A stretch of 64,000 bases of DNA from Gammaproteobacteria bacterium (GCA_028821145.1 JAPPHC010000023.1:5305-69304); one strand, 5' to 3'. Shown: positions 7,410 through 51,259, counted from the first letter of the stretch. Numbers and translations: made by a program. Notes: a model not told the origin generated them from the letters alone.

Positions 7410-10334
7410 ATGTACGAGATCTTCACGCTCGGCGGCGGCGCCTATCTGGTCGACCTCCTGAACGCCGTCGCGGCCATCACGTCCGGCGGCGCGTACGTGA
7501 TGCTCGCCCAGCTCGCGGGCGTCGCCGGTCTCGCCTGGGTGCTGTTCCGCACGGCGTTCGGCGGCTCGTGGAAGGACAACGGCAAATGGATCCTGATGTT
7601 CGTCGCCGTTTGGGGCGCGATGATCGTGCCGAAGGCCACGGTGCGGGTGGTGGACCGGCTCGACCCGGCGCTCGCGCCCGCCGTGGTCGCCAACGTGCCC
7701 ATTGGGCTGGCGCTGTTCGCCTCGGCGACCTCGGAGATCGGCGACGGGCTGACCCGGCTCACGGAGCAGGCGTTCGCGCTGCCCAACGATCTGTCCTACC
7801 GGCGCCACGGCATGATCTTCGGGGCGCGGCTGGCCGCGGCGGCGACCCGGCTCGAAGTCACCGATGCGGTGTTTGCCCGCAATCTCCGAAACTACGCGCG
7901 CCAGTGCGTGTTCTACGCGCTGCTGCTCGGCCACGTCTCCGCCGACGAACTGCGCGAATCCACGGACCTGTGGGCGCTGGTGACGTCCACGACCCGCTCG
8001 CCCACGGCGGGCGCCTCGCCCGCGCGCATGGTCGAGTTCGCCGAACGCAACGCCGGCGGCGGCGTGGACCGATCGGTCGCGACCTGCGCGGACGCGGCGG
8101 GCCGGCTCAATGCGCTTTGGGCGGCGGAGACGGCGCGCGCCGGCGCCGTGTTCGGACGAAGGCTCTTCCCCGGCGCGGCCACCGAGGCGCTGGCGCGCGC
8201 GGAGCTGATGGCGGCGCTGCCGGCCGCGCACGACTTCCTGATCGGCGCCTCGCGTTCCGCGGCGGAGATCATCCGCCAGCAGATGCTGCTCAACGCGGTG
8301 CACGAGGCCGGCGCGCAGTGGGCGTCGGAGGCCGGCAACGCCGCGGCGCTGGCGTCCTACACCGAGGCTCGCGCCGAGGCGCAGACGGTGGCCGCCTACC
8401 GGGCCATCGGCCGGCAGGCCGAGACCTGGGTGCCGATGCTGAAGATCGTGTTCGAGTGCCTGTACGTCGGCGCGTTCCCGATGGCGGTGCTGCTGATGCT
8501 CACGCCCGCGGGGGCGGCGATCTTCAAGTCCTACGTCACCGGACTCGTCTGGCTGCAATCGTGGGGGCCGCTGTACGCGATCCTGCACCGCATCGCCATG
8601 GGGGAGGCCGCCGAGCGCATGGGCGCTGTCGCGCTCATGCCCGGCGGGGATGTCGGCGTCTCGCTCGTCGCCCAGGCCGGCATCCGGGCGGTGGCCACCG
8701 ACGTGGCGGTGATGTCGGGGTACCTGTCGATGTCGGTGCCGTTCCTAGCCGCGGCGCTGGCGTTCGGGGTGTCCCGGATGACCTCGCTCGCCACCTCGGT
8801 GCTCCACGTCGGCCAGGAGGCCGCTGGCGCGGCTGCAAGAGAGAGTTCGACGGGCAACTTCTCGCTTGCCTCCACGCAGGTGGACACGCACCGCTACGCG
8901 ACACTGGAGGGCCGCCAGATCCGAACCTCGGCGCAGGTGGACGACCACCGCCACACCGGCTACGCGGCGGGCGGCGCGGCGTTCACGGTGACCGGCGACG
9001 GCACGGTCGTCGCCGACGCCGCGGCGGCCACCAGCCGCATCCCCGCGGCCGGGGTGCGGTTGTCGGAGTCGCTCGCGGCGAGCCACGAACAACGGGCATC
9101 GCAGGCCCGGAACCTGTCCCGGCAGTTCTCCGCGGAAGCGGGCACGGCGAGAAGCGCGGCGGTCACCGACGCCACGCGGCTCGGCGAGCGCTACGCCCGC
9201 GACGTCTCCACCGGCGAGGCGCACACCCTCGGCGTGACCGAAAGCGAGAGCGCGCAGGTCCAGGCGCTCCAGACCCACTACGAGCGGATGGCCGAGACCG
9301 CGGGTGTCACCAAGGACCAGATGGCCGCGATGGCGGTCGAGGCCCGCGTCGGCGGGGGCTGGGACTTCGTCGTGAAGGCCGGTGTCGACGGCTCCGCGCG
9401 CTGGCGCGGCCAGACGATGGACTCGGAGGCGTGGAACCGCTTGAAGGAATACGCCGAGAGCCACCAGGTGCTGGATCTCGCCTTGCGGGTCTCGGAAGCC
9501 TCGCGCCGCTATGCGACCCAGACCGGCGACAGCCGACACGCGGGGCTGGAGGAGAGCCTCGCCGCGAATCTCTCGGACATGCGGCGGTTCGAGGAACGCG
9601 CCTCGCTGGCGCAACAGGAATCGGAAAGCTGGGCGGAACAGGCATCCAGGGTGCGCTCGGAGGCGCAGGCCATCGACCGGGAACTCGGCCAGCCGTTCTT
9701 CGCGTGGCTGACGGAGCGCCCCGGCGCCGGGGGACGGCCGCTCGGGGCGGCGGGCGCGATCCGGCTGGCCTCGCCGCAGACGCCCGAGGACGCCGAGACG
9801 CTGAGGCAGTACGCCGCGGCGTTCGTCGCCGAGCGGTTCCCCGAACCGGCGGGGCCGGACCCGGCGTCGGTTCCCGGGAGGGAAGATTACAACGCGGCCC
9901 GAGATGCGCTGGATGAGGCACATGCCCACGGGACCGCGGCGGCCCACGCCGGGTGGACGGCGGGCGTGAGGGAACGGGCGGGCCAGGCCGGAACTCCGGC
10001 GCCGGGCGCGGTGGAGGCCGGCGCCGAACACGCCCGCGCGGCGGCCGAGGGGCAAATGGCCGCCGGCACCGCGGAACGCGACCTCCGGCGCGGCGCGACC
10101 GGGGACACTGTCCGGGACGGTCGGGCGGATGTGGAGGCCGAGATGGGCAAGCCGCTGGCGCGCCACGCCACCGAGAGCGTGCCGGGCGTCGGGGGCTGGC
10201 TCGGCGGCAAGCTGTTCGGCACGGCGGAGAACGCGGCGCCGGACGCCTCGCGGCGGGCAGACGCCTCGCAGCGGACGGACACCCCGGAACGTGCGGACAC
10301 GCCGCCACAGCCGGCCGCTCAGGAAAGATCGTGA
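7410..10334 (+). CDS. traG: Type-F mating-pair stabilisation / entry-exclusion partner TraG
   Basis: 974 aa. The polytopic N-terminal TraG_N-like domain starts MYEIFTLGGGAYLVDLLNAVAAIT. Long periplasmic C-terminal half with a low-complexity tail. Confidence 0.9.
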   Translation: MYEIFTLGGGAYLVDLLNAVAAITSGGAYVMLAQLAGVAGLAWVLFRTAFGGSWKDNGKWILMFVAVWGAMIVPKATVRVVDRLDPALAPAVVANVPIGLALFASATSEIGDGLTRLTEQAFALPNDLSYRRHGMIFGARLAAAATRLEVTDAVFARNLRNYARQCVFYALLLGHVSADELRESTDLWALVTSTTRSPTAGASPARMVEFAERNAGGGVDRSVATCADAAGRLNALWAAETARAGAVFGRRLFPGAATEALARAELMAALPAAHDFLIGASRSAAEIIRQQMLLNAVHEAGAQWASEAGNAAALASYTEARAEAQTVAAYRAIGRQAETWVPMLKIVFECLYVGAFPMAVLLMLTPAGAAIFKSYVTGLVWLQSWGPLYAILHRIAMGEAAERMGAVALMPGGDVGVSLVAQAGIRAVATDVAVMSGYLSMSVPFLAAALAFGVSRMTSLATSVLHVGQEAAGAAARESSTGNFSLASTQVDTHRYATLEGRQIRTSAQVDDHRHTGYAAGGAAFTVTGDGTVVADAAAATSRIPAAGVRLSESLAASHEQRASQARNLSRQFSAEAGTARSAAVTDATRLGERYARDVSTGEAHTLGVTESESAQVQALQTHYERMAETAGVTKDQMAAMAVEARVGGGWDFVVKAGVDGSARWRGQTMDSEAWNRLKEYAESHQVLDLALRVSEASRRYATQTGDSRHAGLEESLAANLSDMRRFEERASLAQQESESWAEQASRVRSEAQAIDRELGQPFFAWLTERPGAGGRPLGAAGAIRLASPQTPEDAETLRQYAAAFVAERFPEPAGPDPASVPGREDYNAARDALDEAHAHGTAAAHAGWTAGVRERAGQAGTPAPGAVEAGAEHARAAAEGQMAAGTAERDLRRGATGDTVRDGRADVEAEMGKPLARHATESVPGVGGWLGGKLFGTAENAAPDASRRADASQRTDTPERADTPPQPAAQERS

Positions 10335-10696
10335 CCGGCATCCGCAGAACGACGGGGATCGCGGTTCGCCAGGACATCCTCCCGATCGCGCATGAAGGCG
10401 TACGCGCCGACGCGCAGATCGAGGTCGGCCTCCTCCTCGCGGCCGGGTTCGTGGCGGTGGTCGCGGAACGCGGACCAGTCGCCCCCTCGCAGGCCCGCGC
10501 GGAGCGCCAGCGCGAAGCTCGCGAGAAACGTCCAGGCAACCGCGGCGAGCCACACGGGCGCAAGGAGGTCCTCGTCCAGCCCGAAAAAGGTGGCCGCGGT
10601 TGCGAGGCCGAGCGGCCCGAGCACGGCAAAACGTTCGCGGCGGGCGTTCCGGGGCGAACGGGCCCGGCCGGGCGGGAGGATCGAATTGCGGTTCAT
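10319..10696 (-). CDS. Small two-TM membrane protein (candidate entry-exclusion factor)
   Basis: RBS GGAGA about 9 nt upstream of ATG 10696. Two hydrophobic helices (FAVLGPLGLATAATFFGL and LLAPVWLAAVAWTFLASFALAL). Convergent with traG and overlaps it by 16 nt. Confidence 0.5.
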   Translation of the reverse strand: MNRNSILPPGRARSPRNARRERFAVLGPLGLATAATFFGLDEDLLAPVWLAAVAWTFLASFALALRAGLRGGDWSAFRDHRHEPGREEEADLDLRVGAYAFMRDREDVLANRDPRRSADAGHDLS

Positions 10697-10815: not shown

Positions 10816-12945
10816 ATGAGAACCTTCGGCGGCAGCACGCTGCGCGGCGGGCAGACCGTGTTCCACGGCCTGCACATGTGGAGCCAGCTCCTGCGCGCGG
10901 CCTTGCTGCTCGCGGTGGTGGGGATCGTCGCCACGCCCGCCTGGCGGATCTGGGACCGTACGACCGGCTACGAGTGGTACGCGGCCATGATCGTGACCGT
11001 GGCCGAGGCCAAGCTCGGCGTCGGCTACGCGCGAACGTCCCGCCAGGAGGTGCGCCAGCCGGACGGAAGCACGGCGGTGCTCACTCTGCCGGAGATCGCG
11101 TCGTCGCCGCAGGCGCTGGCCATGCGCGAGAAGCTCAAGCGCGAGGTGTACGGGGGCGCGGCGCTTGGCGCCAAACTCTCCGCCGGGGCCATTGCCGGGC
11201 TGCTCGCGCTGTTTTGGGTCCGCGGAAACCGGCTCGGACGCAACCGCCACATTCGCGGCGCCGAACTCGCTACCGTGGGCCAACTGCGGCGGCGCGTACG
11301 GCCGCTCCCGCGCCGGGCCGCGGACCGGCTGTCGGGCCGGCGCCCGCCCTACCGCATCGCGGGGATGCCGTATCCGCGGCGCGCCGAGACGCAGCACACC
11401 ATCGTTTCCGGCACCACCGGGTCCGGAAAAACCGTACTGATCTCCGATCTGGTGGCGCAGATCCGCGAACGCGGCGAGCGCTGCGTCGTCTACGACAAGA
11501 TGGGCAGCTACACGCGCGCGTTCTACGACCCGGACAGAGACACGCTGCTCAACCCGCTCGACGCCCGCAGCCCGCGCTGGTCGCCGTTCCTCGAGGCGAG
11601 GAGCCCGAGAGACTTCGACACGATGGCCGCGGCGCTGATTCCGCAGCAGAAGGACACCGTCGATCCGTTCTGGGTTACGGCCGCCCGGCAACTGTTCGCC
11701 AACGGCGCGGGCGTGCTCCGCGAGCGCGGCGTCACCGAAAACCGGGAGCTCGTCGAGCACCTCCTCAAGACCGACCTGACGAAGCTCGCCGAGGCCATGG
11801 AGGGTACCGTCGCGCAGTCCATCGTCGATCCCGACAACCCCAAGACCGCGCTGAGCGTCCGCGCCATGCTCACCGCCAACATCGGCGCGCTGGAATACCT
11901 CCCCGACACAGGCGAGTCGTTCTCGATCCGCGAGTGGATCTCGAACGATGGCGCCTGCGGCGGGCAGGCCCGGGACGGCCGAGCGCGGGAGGCCCCGGCA
12001 GGGGGCGCGCCCGCCCGCCAGGGCGGCGGGTTCCTGTTCCTGACCTCCCGGGGCGACCAGCACGCCTCGTTGCGCGGGCTGATCTCGACCTGGCTGGAGA
12101 TCGCGGTCAACGCCATGCTCTCTCTGGAGCAGGACGACGAGCGCCGCATCTGGGTGGTGCTCGACGAGCTGCCGACGCTGCACCAGGTGCCGAGCCTGCA
12201 ACCGGGCCTGGCGGAGTCGCGCCAGTTCGGCGGCTGCTTCGTGCTCGGCATCCAGGTGATCTCGGCGCTGCGCGACCTGTACGGGCGCAACGGCGCGGAG
12301 ACCAAATCGGGGCTGTGCGGCACGCGCGTCGTGTTGGCCGCGCCGGATCGCGACACCGCGCAGTGGTCGGCCGAGAGCCTGGGGCGCGCCGAGGTCGAAG
12401 AGGTGACCGAGGGGTTCAGCTACGGCGCCAACACCATCCGCGACGGCGTCTCGCTGATGCCGAAGCGCGAGCTGCGACCGCTGGCGCTGGCCTCGGAGAT
12501 CATGCAGCTCGAAAGCCTCCACGGCTGGTTGCGGTTCCCCGGCCCGCTCCCGGTCGCCCGGATCAGGCTCAACTACGTCGCACGGCCGAAGGCTGCGGAG
12601 CGGTTCGTGCCGAGGCCGCATGGCGCCCCGGAGCAAGCGAATGCGCGGGAGGGATCGGCAATTGGAACCGCGACAGCGAAAAGGATGGAAGAGCCGAAAT
12701 CGCCGGCTCGGTCTATGCGATCCGCGGGCGCGGAGGATGAAGCGCCGGTTCCCCGTAGCGAATTGCTGCTGCTTCCGCCGATGGAGCCGGATCGTGGATC
12801 GAAGCCACCGCGCAAGGTACGAAAAAACGCAGTTCGCAAGGTGAGCAAATCTGGACCGGGCGGCGACGGCTCGAACCGGGACGCCAAATCTCGCGACGGC
12901 GACGAAGCGGGGGAAACGCCCGCCCAGGATCCGGACTGGCTGTAA
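10816..12945 (+). CDS. traD: Type IV coupling protein TraD
   Basis: Two N-terminal TM helices, Walker A GTTGSGKT, Walker B VVLDELPTL. Acidic-aromatic C-terminus QDPDWL whose stop overlaps the next ATG (TAATG). Confidence 0.9.
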   Translation: MRTFGGSTLRGGQTVFHGLHMWSQLLRAALLLAVVGIVATPAWRIWDRTTGYEWYAAMIVTVAEAKLGVGYARTSRQEVRQPDGSTAVLTLPEIASSPQALAMREKLKREVYGGAALGAKLSAGAIAGLLALFWVRGNRLGRNRHIRGAELATVGQLRRRVRPLPRRAADRLSGRRPPYRIAGMPYPRRAETQHTIVSGTTGSGKTVLISDLVAQIRERGERCVVYDKMGSYTRAFYDPDRDTLLNPLDARSPRWSPFLEARSPRDFDTMAAALIPQQKDTVDPFWVTAARQLFANGAGVLRERGVTENRELVEHLLKTDLTKLAEAMEGTVAQSIVDPDNPKTALSVRAMLTANIGALEYLPDTGESFSIREWISNDGACGGQARDGRAREAPAGGAPARQGGGFLFLTSRGDQHASLRGLISTWLEIAVNAMLSLEQDDERRIWVVLDELPTLHQVPSLQPGLAESRQFGGCFVLGIQVISALRDLYGRNGAETKSGLCGTRVVLAAPDRDTAQWSAESLGRAEVEEVTEGFSYGANTIRDGVSLMPKRELRPLALASEIMQLESLHGWLRFPGPLPVARIRLNYVARPKAAERFVPRPHGAPEQANAREGSAIGTATAKRMEEPKSPARSMRSAGAEDEAPVPRSELLLLPPMEPDRGSKPPRKVRKNAVRKVSKSGPGGDGSNRDAKSRDGDEAGETPAQDPDWL

Positions 12946-13316
12946 TGGTCGTTTCCATCACCGCTGTCGCGTCGCAGTCCCAGGGCGTCTTCTACTACGA
13001 GCGCGACGGCTACTGCGCGGAAGACGATGCCGAACACTTGAACGCGAGCGCCTGGACGGACATGAACGAGGTTCGCATCCACGATCTTCGAAACAGCTTC
13101 GCTTCGCGGGCGCTGGCGCCCGAAGAATCCCTGCCGATGATCGGCAAGTTGCTCGGCCACAGGCGCGCGCAGACCACGGCGCGCTATGCGCATCTGGCAC
13201 GGGAATCAGTCAAGGAGGCAGCGGCTCGGATCGCCGCCAGCATCGGTGAGGACACTCTTTGTCGCGTCGCTGCGCTTTATGGTGGGGCGATGAATTTGCC
13301 TGACGCAGGCAACTAA
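12945..13316 (+). pseudogene. Chimeric remnant: relaxase 5' fragment fused to tyrosine-integrase 3' fragment
   Basis: aa 1-37 (MVVSITAVASQSQGVFYYERDGYCAEDDAEHLNASAW) match the start of the full relaxase at 15669 (26 of 37 identical by hand). From VRIHDLRNSFASRAL...LGHRRAQTTARYAHLARESV it matches the C-terminal catalytic region of the integrases at 50050 and 51260. Confidence 0.75.
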
Positions 13317-13317
13317 A

Positions 13318-13800
13318 CTAAAGATCGTGGAACCCGGTGTAGGGCATGTCGACATAGATGCCGTCGCCATGCGTACGCGTGTACATTCCATTCTGGTTGA
13401 GAAGCCGTTCCAAGACTTCGATCAACGGATCATAGATTTCCTGACCGGTCCATTCCTCAAGATCGAAGAAAGGCTGGACAGCGTCTCGACAAGCGCCAAG
13501 CATCCATCCCAAGGGGTGGCCAGCGAGGTTCTCGAGCTTGGCGCGGTAGCGAGCCGCCAGTCCGGGATGGTCTTCTGCCTTCGCCTCAATCCAGTCGGCG
13601 TGGCCTATGCCATATCCGATCGCTTGGAATAGGAACGTCAGCCGCTCGACCACCAAGGACCAGTACCTATCCAGGTCCCCGTGCAAGCGATAGCTCAGGC
13701 GTGCCGACCGGATCTGGTCATTCACGTCTTTCATCGCCTCACTCAGCATATCGAGGAGATCAAGCCCGTGTTCGGGCGGTCGCCCATGGGTTGACAACAT
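13318..13800 (-). CDS. Hypothetical protein downstream of vapC (start uncertain: 13800 or 13749)
   Basis: Visibly lower G+C than the flanks. Non-repetitive, balanced composition (DRYWSLVVERLTFLFQAIGYGIGHADWIEAKAEDHPGLAARYRAKLENL). AAGGA about 11 nt upstream of ATG 13800. No family recognised. Confidence 0.45.
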   Translation of the reverse strand: MLSTHGRPPEHGLDLLDMLSEAMKDVNDQIRSARLSYRLHGDLDRYWSLVVERLTFLFQAIGYGIGHADWIEAKAEDHPGLAARYRAKLENLAGHPLGWMLGACRDAVQPFFDLEEWTGQEIYDPLIEVLERLLNQNGMYTRTHGDGIYVDMPYTGFHDL

Positions 13801-14194
13801 CAACGCCCGTGTCCTTGAAATCCCGCACGTTGCGGGTGACCAGGACGGCGCCTCGAGACCGGCATATGGCGGCAATCTGGCAGTCGGCCTCGCCGATCGG
13901 TCGGCCCGCGTCGCGGCGGTCGGCCGCGATCTCCGCGTAGGCTCGGGCCGCGGCACTGTCGAACGGCAGAACCCGCTCCCTGAAGCCCAGGTCGAGCCAG
14001 CGGGTCATGGCGGCTTCCAGGGCGTTTCGCCGTTTGCCGACTGGCATGATCGCGACGCCGTAGCGCAACTCCGCTTCGCTCACCGCCGTCAGGTACATCT
14101 CCTGCGCGTCGCGTTCGGCGATCCAGGCCGCGACGGCGGGCGTCGGCTCCGGGCGCATGAGTTCGGAGGCGACATTCGTGTCTATGGCAAACAC
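13760..14194 (-). CDS. vapC: PIN-domain toxin VapC (FitB-like)
   Basis: MFAIDTNVASEL... (first acidic PIN residue), SEAELRYG, and C-terminal LVTRNVRDFKDTGVDVVNPW typical of VapC/FitB. Confidence 0.9.
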   Translation of the reverse strand: MFAIDTNVASELMRPEPTPAVAAWIAERDAQEMYLTAVSEAELRYGVAIMPVGKRRNALEAAMTRWLDLGFRERVLPFDSAAARAYAEIAADRRDAGRPIGEADCQIAAICRSRGAVLVTRNVRDFKDTGVDVVNPWATARTRA

Positions 14195-14203
14195 GCGAGC
14201 TGC

Positions 14204-14449
14204 TCAGGAAAAGTCCGGAGGCTCGCGCATCGGGCCGCGCGGGGGAAGTTCGAGTTCCACGCCGCCCAGGGGCGCAAAGCACTCGCGCGTGAACTTCGCC
14301 AGATCCCGGGGACCGGTTCGCCCGCCGTTCACGGCGTCGCGCAGGATGATGCGGACCTCCTCCTCCATCGAACGGTGATGTTCGGCGGCCCGCACGCGAA
14401 GGCGCGTCTTCACGTCGTCGTCGAGATTGCGGATCGTGATGTTGGCCAT
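14204..14449 (-). CDS. vapB: RHH antitoxin VapB (FitA/Arc-like)
   Basis: MANITIRNLDDDVKTRLRVRAAEHHRSMEEEVRIILRDAV is the classical ribbon-helix-helix antitoxin N-terminus. RBS GAGGAGG. Lies 9 nt upstream of vapC. Confidence 0.85.
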   Translation of the reverse strand: MANITIRNLDDDVKTRLRVRAAEHHRSMEEEVRIILRDAVNGGRTGPRDLAKFTRECFAPLGGVELELPPRGPMREPPDFS

Positions 14450-14492
14450 CCGTCATACCTCCTCATGGTGCGGGACGCACACAAACTATTGG

Positions 14493-14511
14493 TTGCTTGC
14501 AATGCAAGCAA
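14493..14511. promoter_or_regulatory. Perfect 9-1-9 palindrome, probable vapBC operator overlapping a promoter
   Basis: TTGCTTGCA-A-TGCAAGCAA lies 44 nt upstream of the vapB ATG. Read on the minus strand it contains TTGCTT, a 17-nt spacer, then TAGTTT (-35/-10-like). Confidence 0.45.
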
Positions 14512-14645
14512 GTATATGTGATCCGAGCGCGTGCTGCGCGGCTGGGGAGGTTGAGGTGGTGGGCGCTTTGTCCCGAACTTGCGCGTAACTCGGCCAACCG
14601 GCTGCGATCGCCGACCTGCCCATCGAACCTGTCGTTCGCAAGCCA

Positions 14646-14692
14646 GCGCACCTGCGCGCAGGTTGGCGCATTACTGTCGGGGAATCATAGGC
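14646..14692 (+). promoter_or_regulatory. Candidate oriT: inverted repeat followed by a nic-like tract
   Basis: GCGC-ACCTGCG|CGCAGGT-tg-GCGC hairpin (14646-14669), followed by ATTACTGTCGGGGAATCATAGGC. Lies in the 395-bp intergenic gap upstream of traD'-traI. Resembles, from memory, the R388 arrangement GCGCACC-GAAA-GGTGCGT-ATTGTCT/ATAGC. Confidence 0.3.
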
Positions 14693-14844
14693 AATCCCAA
14701 ACTGAGACCGTTTTCGAGGCAGTGTTCCGCCCCTATCCTTGGCGGATGCGCGCCTTTCCTTCAGTTTCTGCCGGGAGTCCCGCCGTCGCATCCTTCCGCC
14801 GTGCCGTCGCCGCCTGACGCGAGCGTCCGGCACGCAGTGCGAGC

Positions 14845-15669
14845 ATGATTGCCTTTCACGGCTTGCGGCGGACGATCCTTTTTGGCGTGGCGGGCGCGGT
14901 GTCGATGGCGATCCTTCTGCCCGGCCTCGCGCTGCTGCGCGATACCACCGGGCACGACTGGTACGCGGCGGGCAAGCTCGTCGTCACCGAGGCGATGATC
15001 GCGGTCGGTTTCGACCCGTCGGAATTCACGGAATACAGATCAGCGGATGGGTCGATCCGCACGGTCACTCGATTTCGCCTCGTCCATACCGTCGAAGCGT
15101 GGATGGCCCGCAGCCGCATCCTCTCCACGATCGCGGACAACGCGCTGCTTGGCGCCGGCGCCGGGTTCGGGGGCGTCGTACTCATGGCGATCCTGTCGAG
15201 CGTGACCCGGGGTGGGCGGCATGGACGGATGTCCAGAGCGTTGGCCGAACCGATGCACCGGGAGCGCCGAGGCTCGTCGCATCGAGGTTCCGGTACCGTC
15301 GAAGTGGTACCGCATACGGAAGGCGGTACCCGAATCGCACTGCCGGTCACGCCTGCCGAGTTTGACCGTCCGTCCGGCGCTGTCGGACAAGCCGGTCGAG
15401 CCCCTCTTCTAACTGCTACGGAACCGGGCCGGAACTCGACAAAGGACACTTCGAGGCGGCGGGCACCGGATGCGACATCCGCCGATCAGCAGACCGACGC
15501 GGAATCGCCCGGGCCTGCCAGTAGTCCGACATCGAACCCCAGCGATACGCGCAAACCGCCCGAAGAGTCTGCCGAGGCGTTCGAACCTGCGAGCGGTCGC
15601 GATTGCAATGGCTTTTCCGGTAGCGACAGAAAGCGCCCCGGTCCAGACGACGATTGGGACTGGTTCTGA
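14845..15669 (+). CDS. TraD-derived protein lacking the NTPase core (possible gene remnant)
   Basis: The N-terminus aligns with TraD (FHGL, TTGHDWYAA vs TTGYEWYAA, VTEA, ADGS vs PDGS, GAGAGFGGVVLMAIL vs GAKLSAGAIAGLLAL). No Walker A or B. C-terminus DDDWDWF overlaps the relaxase ATG (TGATG), as the TraD tail does at 12945. Confidence 0.6.
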   Translation: MIAFHGLRRTILFGVAGAVSMAILLPGLALLRDTTGHDWYAAGKLVVTEAMIAVGFDPSEFTEYRSADGSIRTVTRFRLVHTVEAWMARSRILSTIADNALLGAGAGFGGVVLMAILSSVTRGGRHGRMSRALAEPMHRERRGSSHRGSGTVEVVPHTEGGTRIALPVTPAEFDRPSGAVGQAGRAPLLTATEPGRNSTKDTSRRRAPDATSADQQTDAESPGPASSPTSNPSDTRKPPEESAEAFEPASGRDCNGFSGSDRKRPGPDDDWDWF

Positions 15670-18644
15670 TGGTCGCATCGATTGGTGCGGTAGCGAGCCC
15701 GGCACAGGGCGCCAGTTACTACGAACGGGACGGCTACTACGCCAAGGACGACCCCGAGCATCGCGCCGCGAGCGCTTGGGCAGGCCGCGGCGCGGCCGAA
15801 CTCGGCCTGGAAGGTACGGTCGATCCCGAGACCTTCAAGGCGGTGCTCGAAGGCGCCGTCCCCGACGGTTCCGGACGGCGGCTCGGCAAGCGCGGCAAGG
15901 GCGGGGAGATCCACCACCGGCCCGGGCGCGATCTGACGTTCAGTGCGCCCAAATCTGTCTCGCTCGCCGCGCTGATCGGCGGCGACTCCCGCATCGTCGA
16001 CGCCCACGACCGGGCGGTGGTCCGTGCGCTTGGCTGGTTCGAGAAAAACGCCGCCGAAACCCGGATGCAGGACAAAGCCACCGGAAGGATGGTCCGCGTG
16101 CGCGGCCAGAAGGCGGTGATTTCCACCTTCCGGCACGACACGTCCAGGAATCTCGATCCGGCGCTGCACACGCACTCGGTGATCGCCAACATGCTCAAGG
16201 GCGCCGACGGCAAGTGGCGGACGATGGCCAACGAGTCGCTCTACACCTCCAAGATGCTCCTGGGCGCCCTTTACCGGAGCGAGCTCGCGGGCGAACTCAA
16301 GACGCTCGGCTACTCCATCGAGAAGACCCACGCCGATGGGCGGTTCGAGATCGCAGGCGTGCCCCGCGAGACCGTCGAGGCGTTCTCCACGCGGCGGGCC
16401 GAGATCGAGGCTGCGATGGAAACGCGTGGCCTCGGAGAAACGGCGGCCAATCCGCATCTTGCCGGGCGGGCGGCGCTGATGACGCGCGCACACAAGCGCG
16501 ATGTCGACAAGGCGGCGCTGCGAGAGACCTGGGCGAAGCAGGCCGCCGACCTCGGCTTCGACGCCAAGGCGCTCATCGCCTCGGCGGTGGAGCGCAGTCG
16601 GAACGGCGCCCAGATCGCACACAACCATGAACAACAGGCGGGCAAGGAGGGATCACTTGGCACGGCGCGTCAGGAACACCTGTTTGAGCGGGCCGCACCG
16701 GCGGAACCCGCCCGCGAGGCGGTGGGGTGGGCGCTCGCCCATCTGTCGGAACGCGATGCCGTGTTCTCGTCGAACGATCTGTTGGCCGCAGCGCTTGCGT
16801 TCAATCCTGGCGCGGCCCCCATTGGGGAGATCGAGCAGGCCGTCGCGGGCCTCAAGCGTGAGGGCCGGCTCCACGATGCGCCGGCGCTCGAAGGCGGCGG
16901 CGGACTCACCACCGACACGGCGGTCGCGCAGGAACGCGAGACGATTTCCCTCATGCGCACCGGCGCGGCCCGGGGCAAGGCGCCGATGCGCGGCTGGATG
17001 GTCGACCGGCACCTGCGCAAGGGGCCGCTCACGGCCGGACAGAAGCAGGCGGTAAAACTGATCCTCTCGGAGAAGGATCGCACCGTCGGCGTGCAGGGCT
17101 ACGCCGGGACCGGCAAGACGCGGATGCTGAATCGCGCGAGGACTCTCGCCGAAAAGAAGGGCTGGCGCATGGTGGGGCTCGCGCCGTCGGCTTCGGCGGC
17201 GCAGACGCTGGCGGCGGAATCGGGCATCGAGTCGGAAACGCTGCAACGGTTCCTCGCGAGAAACGCGGGAGTCGCCCAAGGCCGGCTCACCCGCAAGGGT
17301 GCGAGAGCGCTGCGCGCCGCATTCGCCAAGACCGTGCTGGTCGTCGACGAGGGATCGCTCGCCTCCACCGTGCAGGCCCGCGACCTGCTCCGGATCGCGA
17401 GCGAAGTCCGCATCCCGAAGGTGGTGTTGGTCGGCGATGCCAAACAACTCGATGCCGTCGATGCCGGCAAACCGTTCTCGCAGTTGCAGCAGGCGGGCAT
17501 GAAGACCGCCGTCATGGACGAAATCATGCGTCAGAGAAACGTCGACCTGAAGGCCGCGGTGATGGCGAGTCTCAAAGGCGAGATCGGCAGGGCGTTCGAG
17601 AAACTGGGCGGCAATGTTGCCGAGGTCAACCCCGACAACATCGCCGGCGCGGTGGCCGCCCGCTGGCTGAAGCTATCGGCGGAGGAGCGCGACCGTACCG
17701 GTGTCATGGCCCCGAGCCATACCTTGCGGCAGGCGGTCAATGGGCACATCCGGGATCGGCTCGTTCGAGAAGGCCGCATCGCCGGTCCCGCCATGGAGAC
17801 GGAGCGGCTCGTCTCGAAGGGCTACACCAATGCGGAAAAGGCGCTGGCGGCGAACTACGCGGCCGGCGACATGGTCGCCTTTCACCGTCCCTACAAGCGG
17901 CTCGGTGTCGAGAAAGGCGCCGAACGCCGCGTTACGGGCGTGGATCACAGGACGAGAACCGTGCAACTGGAAGGCCCGGACGGTTCGGCGGTGGGCTGGA
18001 AACCGTCGCACATCGGAGGACGCCGGGGTGGAACGGAGGTCTACCGCGCGGAAGCGCTCGAGCTTCGCGCCGGTGACCGCATCCGCTGGACCCGCAACGA
18101 TGCGGGCCTGGGGATCGTGAACAGCGGCGTCGCTGAGGTGACGGCGGTGCGCAAAGGCCGGGTGTCCTTCCGTCTTGAGGACGGGCGCAGCCTCGATCTC
18201 CGCGAAGGAGACGCGCAGCTTCGCCATCTCGACCACGCCTGGGCCTCGACGGTGCACGCGTTCCAGGGTCGCACGGTGGATAACGTGATCGCGGCGATGG
18301 AAGCGAACCATCCGCGCCTGACGACGGCCAAGTCCTTCTACGTCGAGATCAGCCGCGCCCGGGACAGGGCGGAACTGGTGACCGACGATGCGGCGGCGCT
18401 CAAGGAACGGCTCGAAGCGGTGACGGGAGAGCGCATCTCGGCCCTTGAGGGCATCGGCGAGGCCCAGCAGCCGGAGCGCGGCAAGGACTCGAAGGCGTCA
18501 CTCGACCGCGAACCGACACACCGTGAGACTGGGGCGTCGTCCTCGCCGGACAAGATCACCGAGCACGATGTCTCCACCGCCAGGCAGGCGGAACCGGAAC
18601 CACCGACCCGGGGCAAGAACCTTGACATGGAGCTGGGGCTGTAG
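15669..18644 (+). CDS. traI: MOBF (TrwC/TraI-type) relaxase-helicase
   Basis: N-terminal YYERDGYY tyrosines and histidine triad FRHDTSRNLDPALHTHSVIAN. Helicase Walker A GVQGYAGTGKT, LVVDEGSL, and C-terminal STVHAFQGRTVD. Confidence 0.9.
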   Translation: MVASIGAVASPAQGASYYERDGYYAKDDPEHRAASAWAGRGAAELGLEGTVDPETFKAVLEGAVPDGSGRRLGKRGKGGEIHHRPGRDLTFSAPKSVSLAALIGGDSRIVDAHDRAVVRALGWFEKNAAETRMQDKATGRMVRVRGQKAVISTFRHDTSRNLDPALHTHSVIANMLKGADGKWRTMANESLYTSKMLLGALYRSELAGELKTLGYSIEKTHADGRFEIAGVPRETVEAFSTRRAEIEAAMETRGLGETAANPHLAGRAALMTRAHKRDVDKAALRETWAKQAADLGFDAKALIASAVERSRNGAQIAHNHEQQAGKEGSLGTARQEHLFERAAPAEPAREAVGWALAHLSERDAVFSSNDLLAAALAFNPGAAPIGEIEQAVAGLKREGRLHDAPALEGGGGLTTDTAVAQERETISLMRTGAARGKAPMRGWMVDRHLRKGPLTAGQKQAVKLILSEKDRTVGVQGYAGTGKTRMLNRARTLAEKKGWRMVGLAPSASAAQTLAAESGIESETLQRFLARNAGVAQGRLTRKGARALRAAFAKTVLVVDEGSLASTVQARDLLRIASEVRIPKVVLVGDAKQLDAVDAGKPFSQLQQAGMKTAVMDEIMRQRNVDLKAAVMASLKGEIGRAFEKLGGNVAEVNPDNIAGAVAARWLKLSAEERDRTGVMAPSHTLRQAVNGHIRDRLVREGRIAGPAMETERLVSKGYTNAEKALAANYAAGDMVAFHRPYKRLGVEKGAERRVTGVDHRTRTVQLEGPDGSAVGWKPSHIGGRRGGTEVYRAEALELRAGDRIRWTRNDAGLGIVNSGVAEVTAVRKGRVSFRLEDGRSLDLREGDAQLRHLDHAWASTVHAFQGRTVDNVIAAMEANHPRLTTAKSFYVEISRARDRAELVTDDAAALKERLEAVTGERISALEGIGEAQQPERGKDSKASLDREPTHRETGASSSPDKITEHDVSTARQAEPEPPTRGKNLDMELGL

Positions 18645-18762: not shown

Positions 18763-19116
18763 ATGAACCGGAACCGATCCAGCAATCACCAGACGACAGA
18801 CGCGGAGGCGAAGCGGCGGCCTCACTCGATTCGGTTTCTCGACCCGGAATGGGAGCGCATCGAAGTCTTCGCCGATCAGCGCGGCCTCACCGCTCCCGAG
18901 TTCGTCCGGTTCGCTGCGCTTGTTGCGATAGAGAACGGGAGCGAACCGGTCGCCAAGCTGATCCCGCTGATCAAGAGGACGTTCCGCGGGACCCACATAT
19001 TGGCGTCGAGATTGCGCGTCGAGATGCTCGACGCGGGCGAGCAGGAAGAGCTCGATGCGATGATCGCCGCAGCCCGCGGGCTTCAGAACGAGTTGATCGG
19101 CTCCCAATCGGACTGA
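18763..19116 (+). CDS. Small relaxase-adjacent protein, possibly ribbon-helix-helix DNA-binding
   Basis: RBS GGGAGA. The segment RPHSIRFLDPEWERIEVFADQRGLTAPEFVRFAAL has a strand-helix-helix pattern like relaxosome accessory or RHH proteins. Tentative. Confidence 0.5.
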   Translation: MNRNRSSNHQTTDAEAKRRPHSIRFLDPEWERIEVFADQRGLTAPEFVRFAALVAIENGSEPVAKLIPLIKRTFRGTHILASRLRVEMLDAGEQEELDAMIAAARGLQNELIGSQSD

Positions 19117-50049: not shown

Positions 50050-51255
50050 TTATCGTGCCGGCCCCGGTGCGTCTGTCTCCCCATGCAAATCCGCCCGCAG
50101 GCTCTCGGCGACGCGCGCGGCTGACGCCTTCACCGAGTCCCGCGCCAAGTGCGCGTAGCGGGCGGTGGTCTGTACCTTCCCGTGGCCCAACAGCTTGCCG
50201 ATCATCGGCAGGCTCTCGCCCAGCGCCAGCGCACGGGACGCGAATGAGTGCCGGAGATCGTGAATGCGAACGTCTTTCAGATCGGCGCGGGTCCGGATGA
50301 CCTGCCAGGCGCTGTTGATGTTGGTGACGCGCCGGCCCGGCTTCGTACCGGCGATCACCCAGGGATTGCCGGGCACGCGCGGCAGGCCCTCCAGAACCCG
50401 CCGGGCGGAGGGCGAAATCGCCACCGCCCGCGCGCCCGTCTTGGCGTCGCGCAGCCGAAGCTCGCCAGCCTCGAGATCCACGTCCTCCCAGCGCAGCGTC
50501 AGAATCTCGGTCTTGCGGCACCCGGTCAGCATCAGCAGACGAAACGCCGCCACCGCGCTTGGATGCACCTTGCCCTCGGCCTCGACCTCGCCGAGCACCC
50601 GGCCCAGACGCTTGAACTCCTCCTCCGACAGAAAACGCTCGCGGGGCAGCTCGGCGTACTTGCGGACGAACCGGCAGGGATTGCCGCCCTCCGGGGCAAT
50701 CCCCCACAGTTCGGCCATGTTGAACAGCCGCGACAGCATATCCACCACCTTGTTCGCCATGGTGGGCGTCTCGTGCAAGCTGTAGTGCAGGGCCGCGACG
50801 CGCTCGCGCCCGATCCGTCCGAGCCGGACGTTGCCCAGCGCGGGCAGCAGGTGGCGGTCGAGGATGTCGCGGCATTGCCGTCGCGTCGCCGGCTTGCAGC
50901 GCACCGCGACATGCTCGGTCATGAACCGTTCGGCCACTTCGGCCACGGTGGGACCGGCGTCCGCCGGGGCTGCGCCATTGTGCAACACCGGCTCGTTGCC
51001 GGCCTTGATGTCGGCGATGATCTGCGCCGCCTTGCGCCGAGCCTGCTCCGCCGTGATCAGGCCATGGCGCCCGACCTTCAGTCGGCGGGACCTGCCGCCC
51101 GCGCGGGTCTGGACCAGATAGACCTTGGATCCCGAGGGATAGACCCTCACCCCGAAGCCGGAGAGCGACGAGTCCCAGTAGACCGCCTCGCGGTCGCCCG
51201 CCGGCAGCGCCTCGACCGTGCGCTTGGAAATCGATCTTCGTCGGAGCTTCGCCAT
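50050..51255 (-). CDS. int: Tyrosine site-specific integrase (P4-like, DUF4102-type arm-binding N-terminus)
   Basis: The N-terminus has YWDSSLSGFGVRVYPSGSKVYLVQTR. Catalytic region has VRIHDLRHSFAS and LGHGKVQTTARYAHL. GGAG RBS lies inside the 3' end of the upstream integrase. Confidence 0.9.
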   Translation of the reverse strand: MAKLRRRSISKRTVEALPAGDREAVYWDSSLSGFGVRVYPSGSKVYLVQTRAGGRSRRLKVGRHGLITAEQARRKAAQIIADIKAGNEPVLHNGAAPADAGPTVAEVAERFMTEHVAVRCKPATRRQCRDILDRHLLPALGNVRLGRIGRERVAALHYSLHETPTMANKVVDMLSRLFNMAELWGIAPEGGNPCRFVRKYAELPRERFLSEEEFKRLGRVLGEVEAEGKVHPSAVAAFRLLMLTGCRKTEILTLRWEDVDLEAGELRLRDAKTGARAVAISPSARRVLEGLPRVPGNPWVIAGTKPGRRVTNINSAWQVIRTRADLKDVRIHDLRHSFASRALALGESLPMIGKLLGHGKVQTTARYAHLARDSVKASAARVAESLRADLHGETDAPGPAR

Positions 51256-51259
51256 CGCG

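Follow-up and report, generated by a model that had tools for sequence, protein, structure and literature searches.

The window analysed here, a stretch of 64,000 nucleotides from a Gammaproteobacteria bacterium (GCA_028821145.1), carries a complete traD gene and a complete relaxase gene with several other open reading frames between them, which raises the question of how this interval arose, whether the two genes belong to the same conjugative lineage, and what the 274-aa TraD-like protein encoded directly ahead of the relaxase gene (TraD') is. An earlier note on this DNA had described the interval as a recombination scar at which two related conjugative backbones were joined, and had taken TraD' for a second traD that lost its ATPase. 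The features are listed in Table 1; related loci are designated by L numbers.

Table 1. Features of the traD-relaxase interval and of the distal integrase end, with positions counted from the first letter of the window.
Feature	Position	Strand	Description
traD, full F-type coupling protein, 709 aa	10816-12945	+	TMD, NBD/AAD, disordered tail ending ...QDPDWL
Chimera ORF, 123 aa	12945-13316	+	Relaxase head fused in frame to tyrosine-integrase tail
Orphan relaxase head, 37 codons	12945-13055	+	Overlaps traD stop codon (TAATG)
Integrase tail, 86 codons	13056-13316	+	Fused in frame to relaxase head
hyp143, conserved hypothetical gene, 143 aa, lower G+C	13318-13749	-	No family assigned
vapC, PIN	13760-14194	-	Pfam PIN, E 1e-17, 64.9 bits, above cut-off
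Junction of 7.6-kb deletion	13779-13786	.	Type I R-M operon (hsdR-S-M) lost
vapB, FitA-like RHH	14204-14449	-	Pfam FitA-like_RHH, E 5e-21, 74.7 bits, above cut-off
TraD', 274 aa	14845-15669	+	TraD-like N-domain; stop codon overlaps relaxase ATG
MOBF relaxase-helicase, 991 aa, TraD'-coupled lineage	15669-18644	+	Pfam TrwC, AAA_30
p117, 117 aa	18763-19116	+	RHH-like N-terminus, helical C-terminus; candidate relaxosome accessory factor
Two intact tandem tyrosine integrases	50050-52429 (50050-51255, 51260-52429)	-	Far end of island backbone

The start of traD was corrected to its most likely position at 10816. The product matched Pfam TrwB_AAD_bind over model positions 2-386 of 387 (460 bits, E 6e-138), as well as TraG-D_C, and contains the Walker A motif GTTGSGKT. 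Its match to the NCBIfam model TraD_Ftype (TIGR02759) reached 487.5 bits, slightly under the equivalog cut-off of 521, and together with the complete TMD-NBD-AAD arrangement it was counted as that of an F-type TraD. The search returned 1324 traD homologues, of which the best 120 were listed. In all five relatives inspected, traI directly followed traD, and the genes of this T4SS-bearing element (element A) are normally ordered ...traH-traG-(small ORF)-traD-traI, where traI begins within the stop codon of traD. The traD gene of the window belongs to this T4SS-bearing element and ends in QDPDWL-TAATG, the stop codon overlapping the next ATG by one base.

This ATG opens the chimeric ORF. The first 37 residues of the chimera, described in the earlier note as a relaxase N-terminus, were identical to the start of the relaxase at 15669 at 26 of 37 positions (blastp, E 1e-13). 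At the DNA level, positions 12933-13055 aligned with 15657-15779 at 85 of 123 nucleotides (E 2e-10), starting 9 nt inside the traD and TraD' tails. Like that of the integrase tail described below, this similarity is far beyond chance, and an identity of 69% agrees with the proposal that the duplicated traD-tail/traI-head junctions are old. In L001, the copy of the orphan head matched the L006 relaxase, which is traD-coupled, at 33 of 37 positions and showed the signature MVVS..QGV..EHL, and the traD-coupled signature residues are present in the orphan head. A MOBF relaxase comprises a complete relaxase domain of about 290 aa with its His triad, of which the head retains the first 37 residues only. 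Because traI directly follows traD in the relatives, the orphan head is what the T4SS-bearing element has retained of a traI of its own.

The remainder of the chimera corresponds to the end of a tyrosine integrase. Residues 35-103 were identical to the window integrase at 50050-51255 at 51 of 75 positions (68%, E 2e-29), and the tail matched the integrase at 51260-52429 at 43 of 66 positions (65%, E 3e-27), in agreement with the claim that some 85 residues of a related integrase, including HDLRNSF and TTARYAHL, had been kept. Identity to the integrase at L002:514-1722, which occupies the orthologous position in a related contig, reached 88% at the protein level (63 of 72 aa) and 86% at the nucleotide level. 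The chimera matched Pfam Phage_integrase at model positions 124-170 of 172 only and has a change from HDLRH to HDLRN. It lacks the complete catalytic domain and the N-terminal DNA-binding domain of a tyrosine recombinase; its intact paralogues are proteins of about 400 aa that contain Arm-DNA-bind_3 and SAM-like domains. L002-type TraD'-TraI islands (element B) have two tandem integrases at their left end, and the integrase tail is what is left of the second one. The junction (...GCC TGG/ACG GAC...) falls near codon 325 of the integrase ORF, with a microhomology of at most about 4 nt.

Over its whole length, the chimera showed a dN/dS of 0.86, compared to values of 0.06-0.17 in the neighbouring hyp143, vapB, vapC, and relaxase genes. 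At least nine sequence variants were found in several MAG assemblies; one of those in other MAGs is frameshifted, while others are mutated at catalytic residues (RYAHL). The window itself comes from a MAG, and related elements co-occur in these communities, which would favour a chimeric metagenomic contig joining reads of two elements at a shared repeat, the objection that the earlier note had raised against itself. The same junction nevertheless recurs among these variants in separate ENA, NCBI, JGI, and Logan assemblies whose flanks differ, as some have the R-M operon and others lack it, and L045 carries a gene for a Mu-type transposase (Mu-transpos_C_2). The junction does not contain a long shared repeat. 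It is therefore not an assembly artefact, the probability of which we consider vanishingly small. The chimera is a neutrally decaying pseudogene that marks a real deletion.

The region between the chimera and TraD' bears witness to further changes. A hypothetical gene of lower G+C had been noticed here, and the G+C content indeed drops to 0.55-0.57 at 13200-13650 compared to about 0.69-0.72 on both sides. The conserved gene was redefined as the ORF at 13318-13749, replacing a 212-aa ORF running into vapC. Its product was identical to that of L001:847-1278 at 142 of 143 residues (dN/dS 0.14) and gave no match in Pfam, NCBIfam, or PADLOC. The vapBC assignment also stood, as a PIN toxin gene and an adjacent upstream RHH antitoxin gene, the arrangement of VapBC/FitAB modules, lie 9 nt apart on the same strand with dN/dS values of 0.06-0.13. 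The pair is the usual upstream neighbour of TraD' in close islands (L001-L003, L009, L010, and L045). The match between the window and L001 covers L001 positions 1-1314 and resumes from 8935 onwards; at the spot equivalent to 13779-13786, L001, L002, and L045 carry an hsdR-S-M operon, and the operons of L001 and L002 are orthologous (87% and 80% nucleotide identity).

The relaxase gene that follows TraD' is complete. Its conserved start was placed at the ATG at 15669 instead of the TTG at 15654, and the product combines a TrwC relaxase domain (284 bits, model positions 3-285 of 286) with a RecD-like helicase (AAA_30), the composition of a MOBF relaxase, and contains a YY pair and the HDTSRNLDPALHTH motif; the NCBIfam model MobF (NF041492) was matched with 286.7 bits at a cut-off of 100. 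This relaxase was 92-94% identical to TraD'-coupled relaxases but only 70% identical to that of L006, although the TraD proteins of L006 and the window share about 88-90% identity. The TraD'-coupled relaxases mostly form one clade, and the window relaxase was placed inside it. These comparisons support the suggestion of the earlier note that the working TraD and the relaxase are of different lineages. TraD' and the intact relaxase arrived together, both carried by a separate island.

In most related loci, the relaxase gene is followed by p117. A profile built from 10 homologues matched the NikA RHH domain (2ba3) with an E value of 0.007, Pfam gave a weak NikA-like match, and a structure model computed without an alignment reached a pLDDT of 48, with a C-terminus predicted to be helical. 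Single-sequence matches of p117 to TALE repeats were rejected as spurious, being sums of sub-threshold stretches. In relaxosomes, the accessory factors TraM and TrwA bridge oriT to the T4CP. With its small size, its NikA RHH-like character, and its position in the relaxase operon, p117 resembles such factors (TraM of F, TrwA of R388, NikA of R64), although the NikA match is weak, the model poor, and any binding to TraD' or oriT putative. We regard p117 as a candidate relaxosome accessory factor and, by extension, as a candidate partner of the TraD' tail.

In our explanation of this arrangement, element A, an ICE with an F-type T4SS, and element B, a TraD'-TraI-p117 island, were fused by an illegitimate deletion extending from codon 38 of the traI gene of A to about codon 325 of the second integrase gene of B. 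The product was the in-frame 123-aa chimera, which decayed afterwards, and a later, clean 7.6-kb deletion in the window lineage removed the R-M operon of B. The location of the junction inside the integrase ORF, along with the absence from the 64-kb window of a 3' remainder of the old traI or any other traI fragment, suggests that the two elements were neighbours and that an illegitimate deletion spanned both; comparison with the relatives shows both the fusion and the R-M deletion. The head and tail matches found in the relatives likewise support the scar joining two related backbones. Of the two routes considered in the earlier note, the joining of backbones thus holds, while the landing of an island in the traD-traI junction is doubtful, given a junction inside the integrase ORF.

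A more elaborate version of the second route would have the island integrate site-specifically in the 5' end of traI, with a replacement traD'/traI-head restoring the target and the chimera representing a decayed attL with int. Insertion of IMEs into oriT or into conserved genes of ICEs is known (PMC5704250; PMC7563843), and L012 bears a second relaxase-head scar (aa 1-116) and a partial TraD' upstream of the intact TraD'-traI, which hints at a recombination-prone spot. However, site-specific integration cannot produce a junction at about codon 325 of an integrase coding sequence, the window contains neither a 3' remainder of the old traI nor an att-like direct repeat linking the scar region to the integrase end, and TraD'-traI islands are mostly located far from any traD, so that traI is not their usual target. 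We consider this route very unlikely. The fusion by deletion has parallels in IME-ICE fusion and accretion and in IMEs located inside ICE transfer genes, both of which are documented (PMC5704250). It is similar to ICESt1/CIME-type composites in that the joining of two elements went along with the loss of an internal att/int region and of one transfer gene, after which the composite persisted and diversified, but it differs in that the deletion ends inside traI and an integrase gene, giving an in-frame relaxase::integrase ORF.

The nature of TraD' is the second part of the question. The similarity to TraD that had been reported for its N-terminus was recovered by blastp (aa 4-128, 42 of 132 positions identical, 32%, E 2e-13) and by profile-profile comparison with hhalign (probability 97.6%, E 3e-12, 112 columns), and full-length T4CPs matched the TraD' family profile at their own residues ~19-150 only. 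Residues 1-123 comprise a pair of TM helices separated by a small periplasmic loop, residues 124-266 a disordered linker, and the protein ends in DDDWDWF-TGATG, its stop codon overlapping the next ATG by one base, in line with the resemblance to the traD tail noticed previously. AF2 placed the helices at 4-33 and 83-123 and predicted residues 124-274 to be disordered; the model was of low confidence, with a pLDDT that averaged 50 and reached 60-80 in the N-domain. The N-domain is thus homologous to the two-helix transmembrane domain of TraD. The window protein matched nothing in Pfam, NCBIfam, or PADLOC and thus showed no NTPase domain, and none of 21 family members matched a T4CP model. A T4CP is defined by a nucleotide-binding domain with Walker A/B motifs (TrwB_AAD_bind, T4SS-DNA_transf). 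Since TraD' lacks the nucleotide-binding/all-alpha domain, a function as coupling ATPase is excluded, and the protein falls outside the T4CPs so defined; it looks like a T4CP without the motor.

The NTPase core is therefore absent, as claimed, but its loss in situ from a second traD did not hold up. In that first reading, the ATPase core would have disappeared by local decay after the backbones had been joined, leaving a pseudogene-like ORF. The confinement of TraD similarity to the N-terminal TMD and the extreme tail would fit an internal deletion of traD, and deletion derivatives do occur, for example P0297, a TraD(1-~290)::TraI C-terminal fusion. TraD', however, has relatives: 48 homologues of 151-312 aa were collected, and an exhaustive search gave 199 clusters, 138 of them with E<=1e-10. 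Nearly all members have 200-310 aa, and length and architecture are constant despite identities of only 29-96%; no Pfam or NCBIfam model covers the family. The N-domain contains 18 invariant columns, and its invariant motifs (RDTTGHDWYAAGK, GF, YR) are kept across phyla; dN/dS was 0.36 in the N-domain and 0.63 in the linker. The family occurs in Gamma- and Alphaproteobacteria and Thermodesulfobacteriota, nearly always without traD nearby. A tblastn search against 72,556 plasmids returned nothing, and a sequence comparison with solved structures gave no meaningful match.

Conservation also extends to the other end of the protein. The TGATG overlap of the TraD' stop with the start of a TrwC (MOBF) relaxase gene was present in 37 of 39 loci, and the C-terminus follows the pattern [WF][FIVYL]-COOH, with W or F as the penultimate residue in 38 of 42 sequences and a hydrophobic last residue in 39 of 42. 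This end resembles that of TraD (...DW[LM]), although the overlapping traI start may add nucleotide constraint. Since the family is wide, uniform, and conserved, any deletion must be ancient and the product kept by selection. Local decay is accordingly extremely improbable, and we identify TraD', from these comparisons of sequence, as an intact, widely conserved, and previously unannotated stand-alone gene that appears to be selectively maintained, and its product as a motor-less coupling-protein paralogue.

Regarding the elements in which TraD' resides, the core operon of element B is TraD'-TraI-p117 (TraD'-TraI-RHH). On its flanks are cargo genes that vary (vapBC, type I R-M), tandem tyrosine integrases, and a leading-region-like backbone encoding YAcAr, Toprim primase-like, SSB, Sno-type helicase, ParB-like, and RadC proteins. 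The two intact integrases of the window are 54% identical to each other and paralogous to the integrase of the chimera tail, and the int-int-cargo-RadC-PAPS layout is shared with L046, whose integrase is 84% identical; a search with the RadC-like protein mostly matched unrelated RadC loci, with L046 alone being informative. Within 10 kb of TraD' in 40 loci, no traD NBD, traG, or traH was found except in L001 and the window, and no T4SS genes were detected at 19-50 kb of the window. ORFs in the latter region were also scanned for the missing half of a split T4CP, of which TraD' would be the membrane half; no T4CP-type domain was found, and this idea was rejected. In two genomes, in each of which one close TraD homologue was looked up, canonical T4SS-traD-traI clusters were located 0.5-1 Mb from the TraD' loci. 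Several TraD' loci are carried by each of the complete MAG chromosomes OZ220710.1, OZ220712.1, CBDBGH010000003.1, and OZ220471.1. IMEs carry their own integrase and a relaxase or oriT without MPF genes; the islands have integrases and a relaxase, with T4SS genes surveyed over +/-10 kb, and we regard them as putative IMEs.

Their ends and origins of transfer were also searched for. Neither the window nor the neighbourhood of the tandem integrases in 14 loci contained tRNA genes. The upstream regions of traD and TraD' showed no similarity to each other, the R388 and F nic motifs were found in neither, and the sequences upstream of TraD' in the different islands aligned with too many gaps for an oriT to be defined. 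In the PADLOC scan, an OLD-like protein gave a weak match to GajA (E 5e-4) and a PAPS-reductase-like protein matched BrxP and SspD; hyp143, TraD', and five of seven other proteins scanned had no match.

What may a coupling protein without a motor do? In F-like systems, the TraD NTD contacts the IMC and is followed by the NBD and by an unstructured CTD, which binds TraM through its last ~8 residues (PMC10939261; PMC7434980). TraD' shares the homologous N-terminal TMD with the same predicted TM-loop-TM layout, the unstructured tail with an aromatic-hydrophobic end, and the translational coupling to traI; it differs in having no nucleotide-binding/all-alpha domain and in forming a separate lineage, usually with no traD nearby. 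TraD' has kept both ends of TraD, the membrane/periplasmic N-domain and the disordered tail with its aromatic-hydrophobic C-terminus, and lost the NBD/AAD motor between them. We infer that it tethers the island relaxosome to the secretion system of a helper. It would reside in the inner membrane, either beside a complete TraD hexamer or the platform of the T4SS or intermingled with one of them, while its C-terminal tip would capture the relaxosome, probably through the RHH protein p117 or TraI, and an island without its own T4SS would be routed through the helper's secretion machine. In the window, such an island has been welded to a helper-type element that lost its relaxase, and the T4SS and TraD of A would have to use the relaxase of B, possibly bridged by TraD'.

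A conceptual precedent is provided by DotM and DotN, membrane-anchored, motor-less partners of the T4CP DotL that recruit substrates in type IVB systems. The likeness is one of concept only, as there is no sequence relationship and both the secretion class and the substrates (effector proteins) differ. The TraD' tail subfamilies (DDDxDWF, RRKRDYGRW[IV], and PDGDGDFF) differ in charge and, judging from these sequences, cannot all bind in the manner of the F TraD-TraM pair.

Two other roles have to be weighed against tethering. As a fertility inhibitor or decoy, TraD' might poison helper TraD hexamers through its TMD, or its tail might titrate a relaxosome factor of the helper, in either case favouring the island. 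The same anatomical evidence that suggests an adaptor would serve this role, islands and canonical T4SS-traD-traI elements occur in the same genomes, and interference with helper relaxosomes by mobilizable islands is known, for instance from CtiC of SGI1 (PMC13635750). In the window and in L001, however, TraD' persists fused to an element whose TraD is needed, where an inhibitor would be counter-selected unless tightly regulated, and tail subfamilies that differ from the TraD tail D[PC]DW[LM] argue for a partner of their own over mimicry of the helper tail. An inhibitory role is, in our assessment, rather unlikely. The second possibility is that the TraD' ORF acts in cis, as a translated leader delivering ribosomes to the overlapping traI start, its protein being functionless. 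The frequency of the TGATG overlap, the conservation of the surrounding nucleotides (..TC TGA TGG TCG), and the almost free evolution of the linker would agree with a leader, and a need for particular nucleotides in the re-initiation at traI could explain part of the constancy of the last two codons. A leader would nonetheless not need about 120 conserved residues, two TM helices, the motifs RDTTGHDWYAAGK, GF, and YR across phyla, or retained homology to the TraD TMD, which makes this role quite improbable. The whole explanation, a fusion scar together with a tethering, motor-less TraD', is the one that we favour with moderate confidence.

The TraD'-TraI islands resemble IMEs such as NBU1 and SGI1 in having integrases and a relaxase along with an RHH protein as a candidate accessory factor, while T4SS genes were undetected in or near them and complete conjugative elements are co-resident; their status as IMEs is accordingly putative. 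The strategies given for IMEs in the legend of Figure 3 of PMC5704250 are a relaxase alone, a relaxase with a full coupling protein or with an accessory factor, and replacement MPF subunits. The motor-less coupling-protein fragment differs from these, being absent from that list. If the islands are mobilizable, TraD' would represent a fifth strategy of helper exploitation. More broadly, we tentatively suggest, as a plausible reading that falls somewhat short of probable, that TraD' defines an unannotated class of conjugation proteins with which T4SS-less islands plug a MOBF relaxosome into, or compete for, the F-type T4SS/TraD of a helper ICE, and that the window captures a domestication, in which parasite and helper were fused after complementary losses. 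The hosts named in this connection are marine and sponge-associated Proteobacteria and Thermodesulfobacteriota.

For annotation, some 140-200 protein clusters labelled 'hypothetical' could now be named, and chimeras labelled 'tyrosine recombinase' could be given correct names. The matching of relaxosome, coupling protein, and channel decides which helpers mobilize which elements and thereby shapes gene spread. By keeping the two interaction ends of TraD, TraD' would separate docking from the motor and may offer a handle on this matching through tail swaps, TMD swaps, and tests for dominant effects. The scar itself is ordinary yet unusually legible, recording how an ICE and a dependent island may fuse and how T4CP and relaxase lineages may reassort.

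The TraD protein encoded in the window has more than 1300 close homologues. In all five relatives whose traD contexts were examined (L006, L007, L008, L043, and L044, contig loci bearing related elements), the gene order was traU-trbC-traN-traF-traH-traG-(small minus-strand ORF)-traD-traI. The traI start overlapped the traD stop codon in four of them and lay 2 bases past the stop in L043, and none of the five carried an integrase, vapBC, or TraD′ (the TraD-like ORF devoid of an ATPase) between traD and traI. Since canonical relatives have traI directly after traD, the 37 codons found 3′ of the window traD are a remnant of that element's own traI. They form the head of a chimera whose tail derives from a tyrosine integrase, and they bear the residues of traD-coupled relaxases (MVVS..., QGV, and EHL); the head of the sister contig L001 agrees with the L006 relaxase at 33 of 37 positions. 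Formal alignment reproduced the similarities described in the earlier note, namely those of the head to the relaxase start (26/37 identical, E 1e-13), of the tail to the two integrases at 50–52.4 kb (68% and 65%, E 2e-29 and 3e-27), and of the TraD′ N-terminus to TraD (42/132 identical, E 2e-13). The duplicated traD-tail/traI-head junctions were likewise found to be 69% identical in DNA over 123 nt, and the low-G+C gene noticed after the chimera corresponds to a dip to 0.55–0.57 at 13.2–13.65 kb. The position of the small ORF between traG and traD is kept in all canonical relatives (114–171 aa there), which makes its product a candidate entry-exclusion protein.

Features of the traD-traI region (ORF map of 9.5–20 kb) and of the remaining element in the window
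Feature	Position	Strand	Match or remark
traG	7410-10334		Pfam TraG_N
Small ORF, traG-traD interval	10319-10696	minus	No family matched
traD	ORF from 10600, conserved start 10816		Pfam TrwB_AAD_bind, E 6e-138
Chimera, 123 aa	12945-13316		Pfam Phage_integrase, last ~47 model positions only
Hypothetical gene	Between chimera and vapC	minus	ORF map
vapC	13760-14194	minus	Pfam PIN
vapB	Adjoining vapC	minus	Pfam FitA-like RHH
TraD′, 274 aa	14845-15669		No Pfam match
Relaxase gene, 991 aa	ATG at 15669		Pfam TrwC + AAA_30
p117, 117-aa ORF	18763-19116		ORF map
OLD-like TOPRIM gene, 587 aa	19349-21112	plus	Weak GajA match, lower G+C
RadC	43.7 kb		Island backbone reaches to here, then cargo and two integrases
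Two integrases	50-52.4 kb		Tandem
Second PIN (VapC-like) gene	52661-53068	plus	34% identical to vapC

The chimera tail was only 65–68% identical to the window's own integrases and matched the C-terminus of the second tandem integrase of L002 at 63 of 72 aa (88%; 86% at the nucleotide level). The tandem integrases of L002 are intact and occupy the place equivalent to that of the window's fragment, followed by a type I R-M operon, vapCB, TraD′, the relaxase gene, and p117; tandem integrases were found at the same place in L010, L013, L019, L020, and L025. At the junction (...GCG AGC GCC TGG / ACG GAC ATG AAC GAG GTT..., the slash marking the join), relaxase-like sequence switches to integrase-like sequence within a few bases, with a microhomology of at most about 4 nt. 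Because site-specific integration cannot yield a junction within an integrase ORF, this sequence points to an illegitimate deletion, for which in-frame joining is expected by chance in one case out of three; no further traI fragment was present in the window. The earlier proposal that two ICE backbones were joined here, or that an island landed in the junction and decayed, holds with respect to the joining of two elements and is modified in its mechanism, a deletion having fused an F-type ICE to a TraD′-TraI island. Among the integrase homologues, P0051, P0053, P0054, P0056, and P0058 are short fragments with a doubled C-terminal motif (...TTARYAHLAR... twice), suggesting that the islands' tandem integrase genes often recombine unequally.

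A search of 5.8 billion proteins returned full-length matches to the chimera (head and tail) in two clusters only, one consisting of a single sequence identical to that of the window and the other of 8 sequences with a representative 94% identical. One copy was frameshifted into 39-aa and 84-aa pieces, some variants had lost a catalytic tyrosine of the head (FCYERDGY), and others were changed in the integrase motifs RYAHL (TMVRYAHL) and RIHDLR (VCIHDLR). Between the window and L001, dN/dS was 0.86 for the chimera, a value from 11 differences only, 0.14 for the hypothetical gene, 0.06–0.13 for vapBC, and 0.17 for the relaxase. Judging from these sequences, the chimera is a decaying scar whose product shows no sign of use. 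The members originate from several assemblies made independently of one another (NCBI entries MYF57581.1 and MYA18580.1, one JGI contig, and contigs of ENA and Logan) and their flanks differ: L001 and L045 have a type I R-M operon, as L002 does, with a Mu-type transposase gene further upstream in L045, and the window shows a clean 7.6-kb loss at about 13780. The fused arrangement therefore persisted and diversified, which excludes the assembly artefact considered in the earlier note. Synonymous divergence between the window (12472–18487) and L001 is strongly mosaic, rising from 0.02–0.03 (chimera, hypothetical gene) through 0.12 (3′ end of traD) and 0.15–0.20 (vapBC, TraD′) to 0.35 (relaxase gene), and the L045 contig carries a chimera of the same cluster (at least 90% identity) beside a TraD′ only about 63% identical to that of the window. 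On account of this mosaic and of the divergent L045 TraD′, it is evident that related composite elements went on recombining and swapping modules once the fusion had formed. The scar itself is an ordinary case of ICE mosaicism.

TraD′ had been taken for a decayed second traD, a reading that we abandon, as it belongs to a conserved and long-maintained gene family. A search with TraD′ gave 48 homologues of 33–96% identity and 151–312 aa, none with an annotation, and when 1.84 billion cluster representatives were searched exhaustively with a profile, 199 clusters passed E ≤ 1e-3, of which 138 also passed E ≤ 1e-10, almost all of them no longer than 340 aa; the few long matches were full-length T4CPs or fusion/truncated derivatives aligned at residues ~19–150 only. 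Searches of family members against Pfam yielded nothing beyond one member's borderline DUF5955 match (E 0.0097), and neither NCBIfam nor PADLOC gave a match to the window TraD′. The alignment comprises an N-terminal domain (~120 residues) in which 18 columns are invariant, RDTTGHDWYAAGK, GF, and YR among them, then a linker of low complexity and varying length, and a conserved C-terminus. Among 42 ORFs from 41 loci, 38 have W or F in the penultimate position and 39 end in F, I, V, Y, or L, with the tail subfamilies DDDxDWF, RRKRDYGRW[IV], PDGDGDFF, and EPGEQFF; this extreme C-terminal conservation may result partly from the overlapping traI initiation region (..TC TGA TGG TCG). AlphaFold2 on the family alignment gave, as a low-confidence model, a TM helix (4–33), a helix, a β-hairpin, and a long helix (83–123) including a second TM segment, followed by disorder to the end. 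In the profile–profile comparison, residues 1–108 of TraD′ matched residues 12–123 of TraD, represented by an alignment of 14 proteins (probability 97.6%, E 3e-12), and tails in the family of the window TraD end in ...D[PC]DW[LM]. By these alignments, TraD′ keeps both ends of TraD without the NBD/AAD motor domains; it was probably derived from traD by an ancient internal deletion and its product maintained since. Such events do occur: the protein P0297 (748 aa) is a natural fusion in which a TraD N-terminus (~290 aa with TMD and Walker A) is joined to the helicase-bearing C-terminal part of a TraI, an in-frame deletion spanning traD-traI that shows a possible route to NBD-less derivatives.

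Forty TraD′ loci outside the window were examined (L001–L005, L009–L042, and L045), with 10 kb visible on each side. The relaxase gene lies directly 3′ of TraD′. Of the 39 loci with both genes readable (window included), 37 show the relaxase ATG and the TraD′ stop overlapping as TGATG; in the exceptions, L018 and L024, TraD′ is truncated or frameshifted. In most loci p117 comes next, then YAcAr, a Toprim primase-like gene, and SSB on the opposite strand, a backbone that is also that of the window at 19–25.6 kb. Among the 40 loci, a traD NBD, traG, or traH was found within 10 kb of TraD′ in L001 only, and no T4SS genes occur along the window backbone up to RadC, so that TraD′ islands are apart from T4SS clusters within the visible range. 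In each of two genomes, one close TraD homologue was looked up, and it belongs to a canonical T4SS-traD-traI cluster; the distance to the TraD′ loci is 0.5 Mb in one (contig of 5,463,552 bp) and 1 Mb in the other (contig of 2,756,080 bp). Several genomes have two or three TraD′ modules, and L046 again shows the int-int-cargo-RadC-PAPS layout, including an integrase of 84% identity. In a neighbour-joining tree, the TraD′-coupled relaxases form one clade, with the exception of L023, and the window relaxase falls inside it (94% to L009, 92% to L001, and 70% to the L006 relaxase); its placement means that TraD and the relaxase come from different lineages, as the earlier note had supposed.

Other rearrangements were observed in these islands. 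L012 (8324–9636) contains a scar of a like type directly upstream of an intact TraD′-traI pair, composed of a partial TraD′ C-terminal half (ORF 8324–8695) and a relaxase head (aa 1–116; 9299–9636), and the T4CP-like/relaxase-head junction seems recombination-prone. L019 and L020, two island copies of one genome that are 99.7% identical, have long diverged tandem-repeat arrays (~13720–16900, about 66-nt register) downstream of the relaxase gene that differ in copy number, and the divergent TraD′-traI modules L034 and L035 (CBDAUF010000002.1, ~153–189 kb), ~14 kb apart, have in common a 3.66-kb stretch that is 100% identical. The variable slot 3′ of p117 holds CRISPR-Cas in L001 (16302–20825, type I-C-like) and L002 (14861–19297, a Cas9 locus); in the window, the OLD-like gene, probably defence cargo, is inserted between p117 and the YAcAr gene. 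The second PIN gene flanks the tandem integrases on their outer side, where the element presumably has its right end. The conserved spacer 5′ of TraD′ holds two features, at 14646–14682 and ~14493–14511: an inverted repeat, GCGCACCTGCG/CGCAGGTTGGCGC, followed by ATTACTGTC, also present in L001, L009, and L010, and the perfect palindrome TTGCTTGCAATGCAAGCAA. The repeat with ATTACTGTC resembles the hairpin-plus-nic layout of the R388 oriT and is a candidate oriT or operator.

In F-like TraD, the N-terminal TM domain contacts the inner-membrane complex, and the C-terminal domain, which is unstructured, binds TraM specifically through its last ~8 residues; this binding "physically couples" plasmid and T4SS (PMC10939261; PMC7434980). 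Compared with F-like TraD, TraD′ is just the TM module and the tail module with a flexible linker of ~150 residues between them. Because its two parts correspond to the IMC-contact and TraM-binding modules of F TraD, we propose by analogy that TraD′ would act as a membrane-anchored tether bringing the island's relaxosome to a full TraD and T4SS, which would come in trans from a helper or in cis in the window's fused element. The likely partner of its tail is p117, whose family profile matches NikA, a relaxosome protein, in its RHH domain (2ba3, E 0.007) and whose C-terminal half is helical in a low-confidence structure model, a layout presumably resembling that of TraM and TrwA. The chief competing functional reading is that TraD′ works against the helper, either as a decoy or as a dominant-negative subunit. 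The known IME strategies in the Figure 3 legend of PMC5704250 comprise a distinct relaxase and coupling protein, a relaxase alone or joined by an accessory factor, and a relaxase with an accessory factor and three MPF proteins; none in that legend has a motor-less coupling protein. The TraD′ proteins represent a variant, so far uncharacterized, of a familiar protein type, and the role in coupling specificity suggested for them can be tested.
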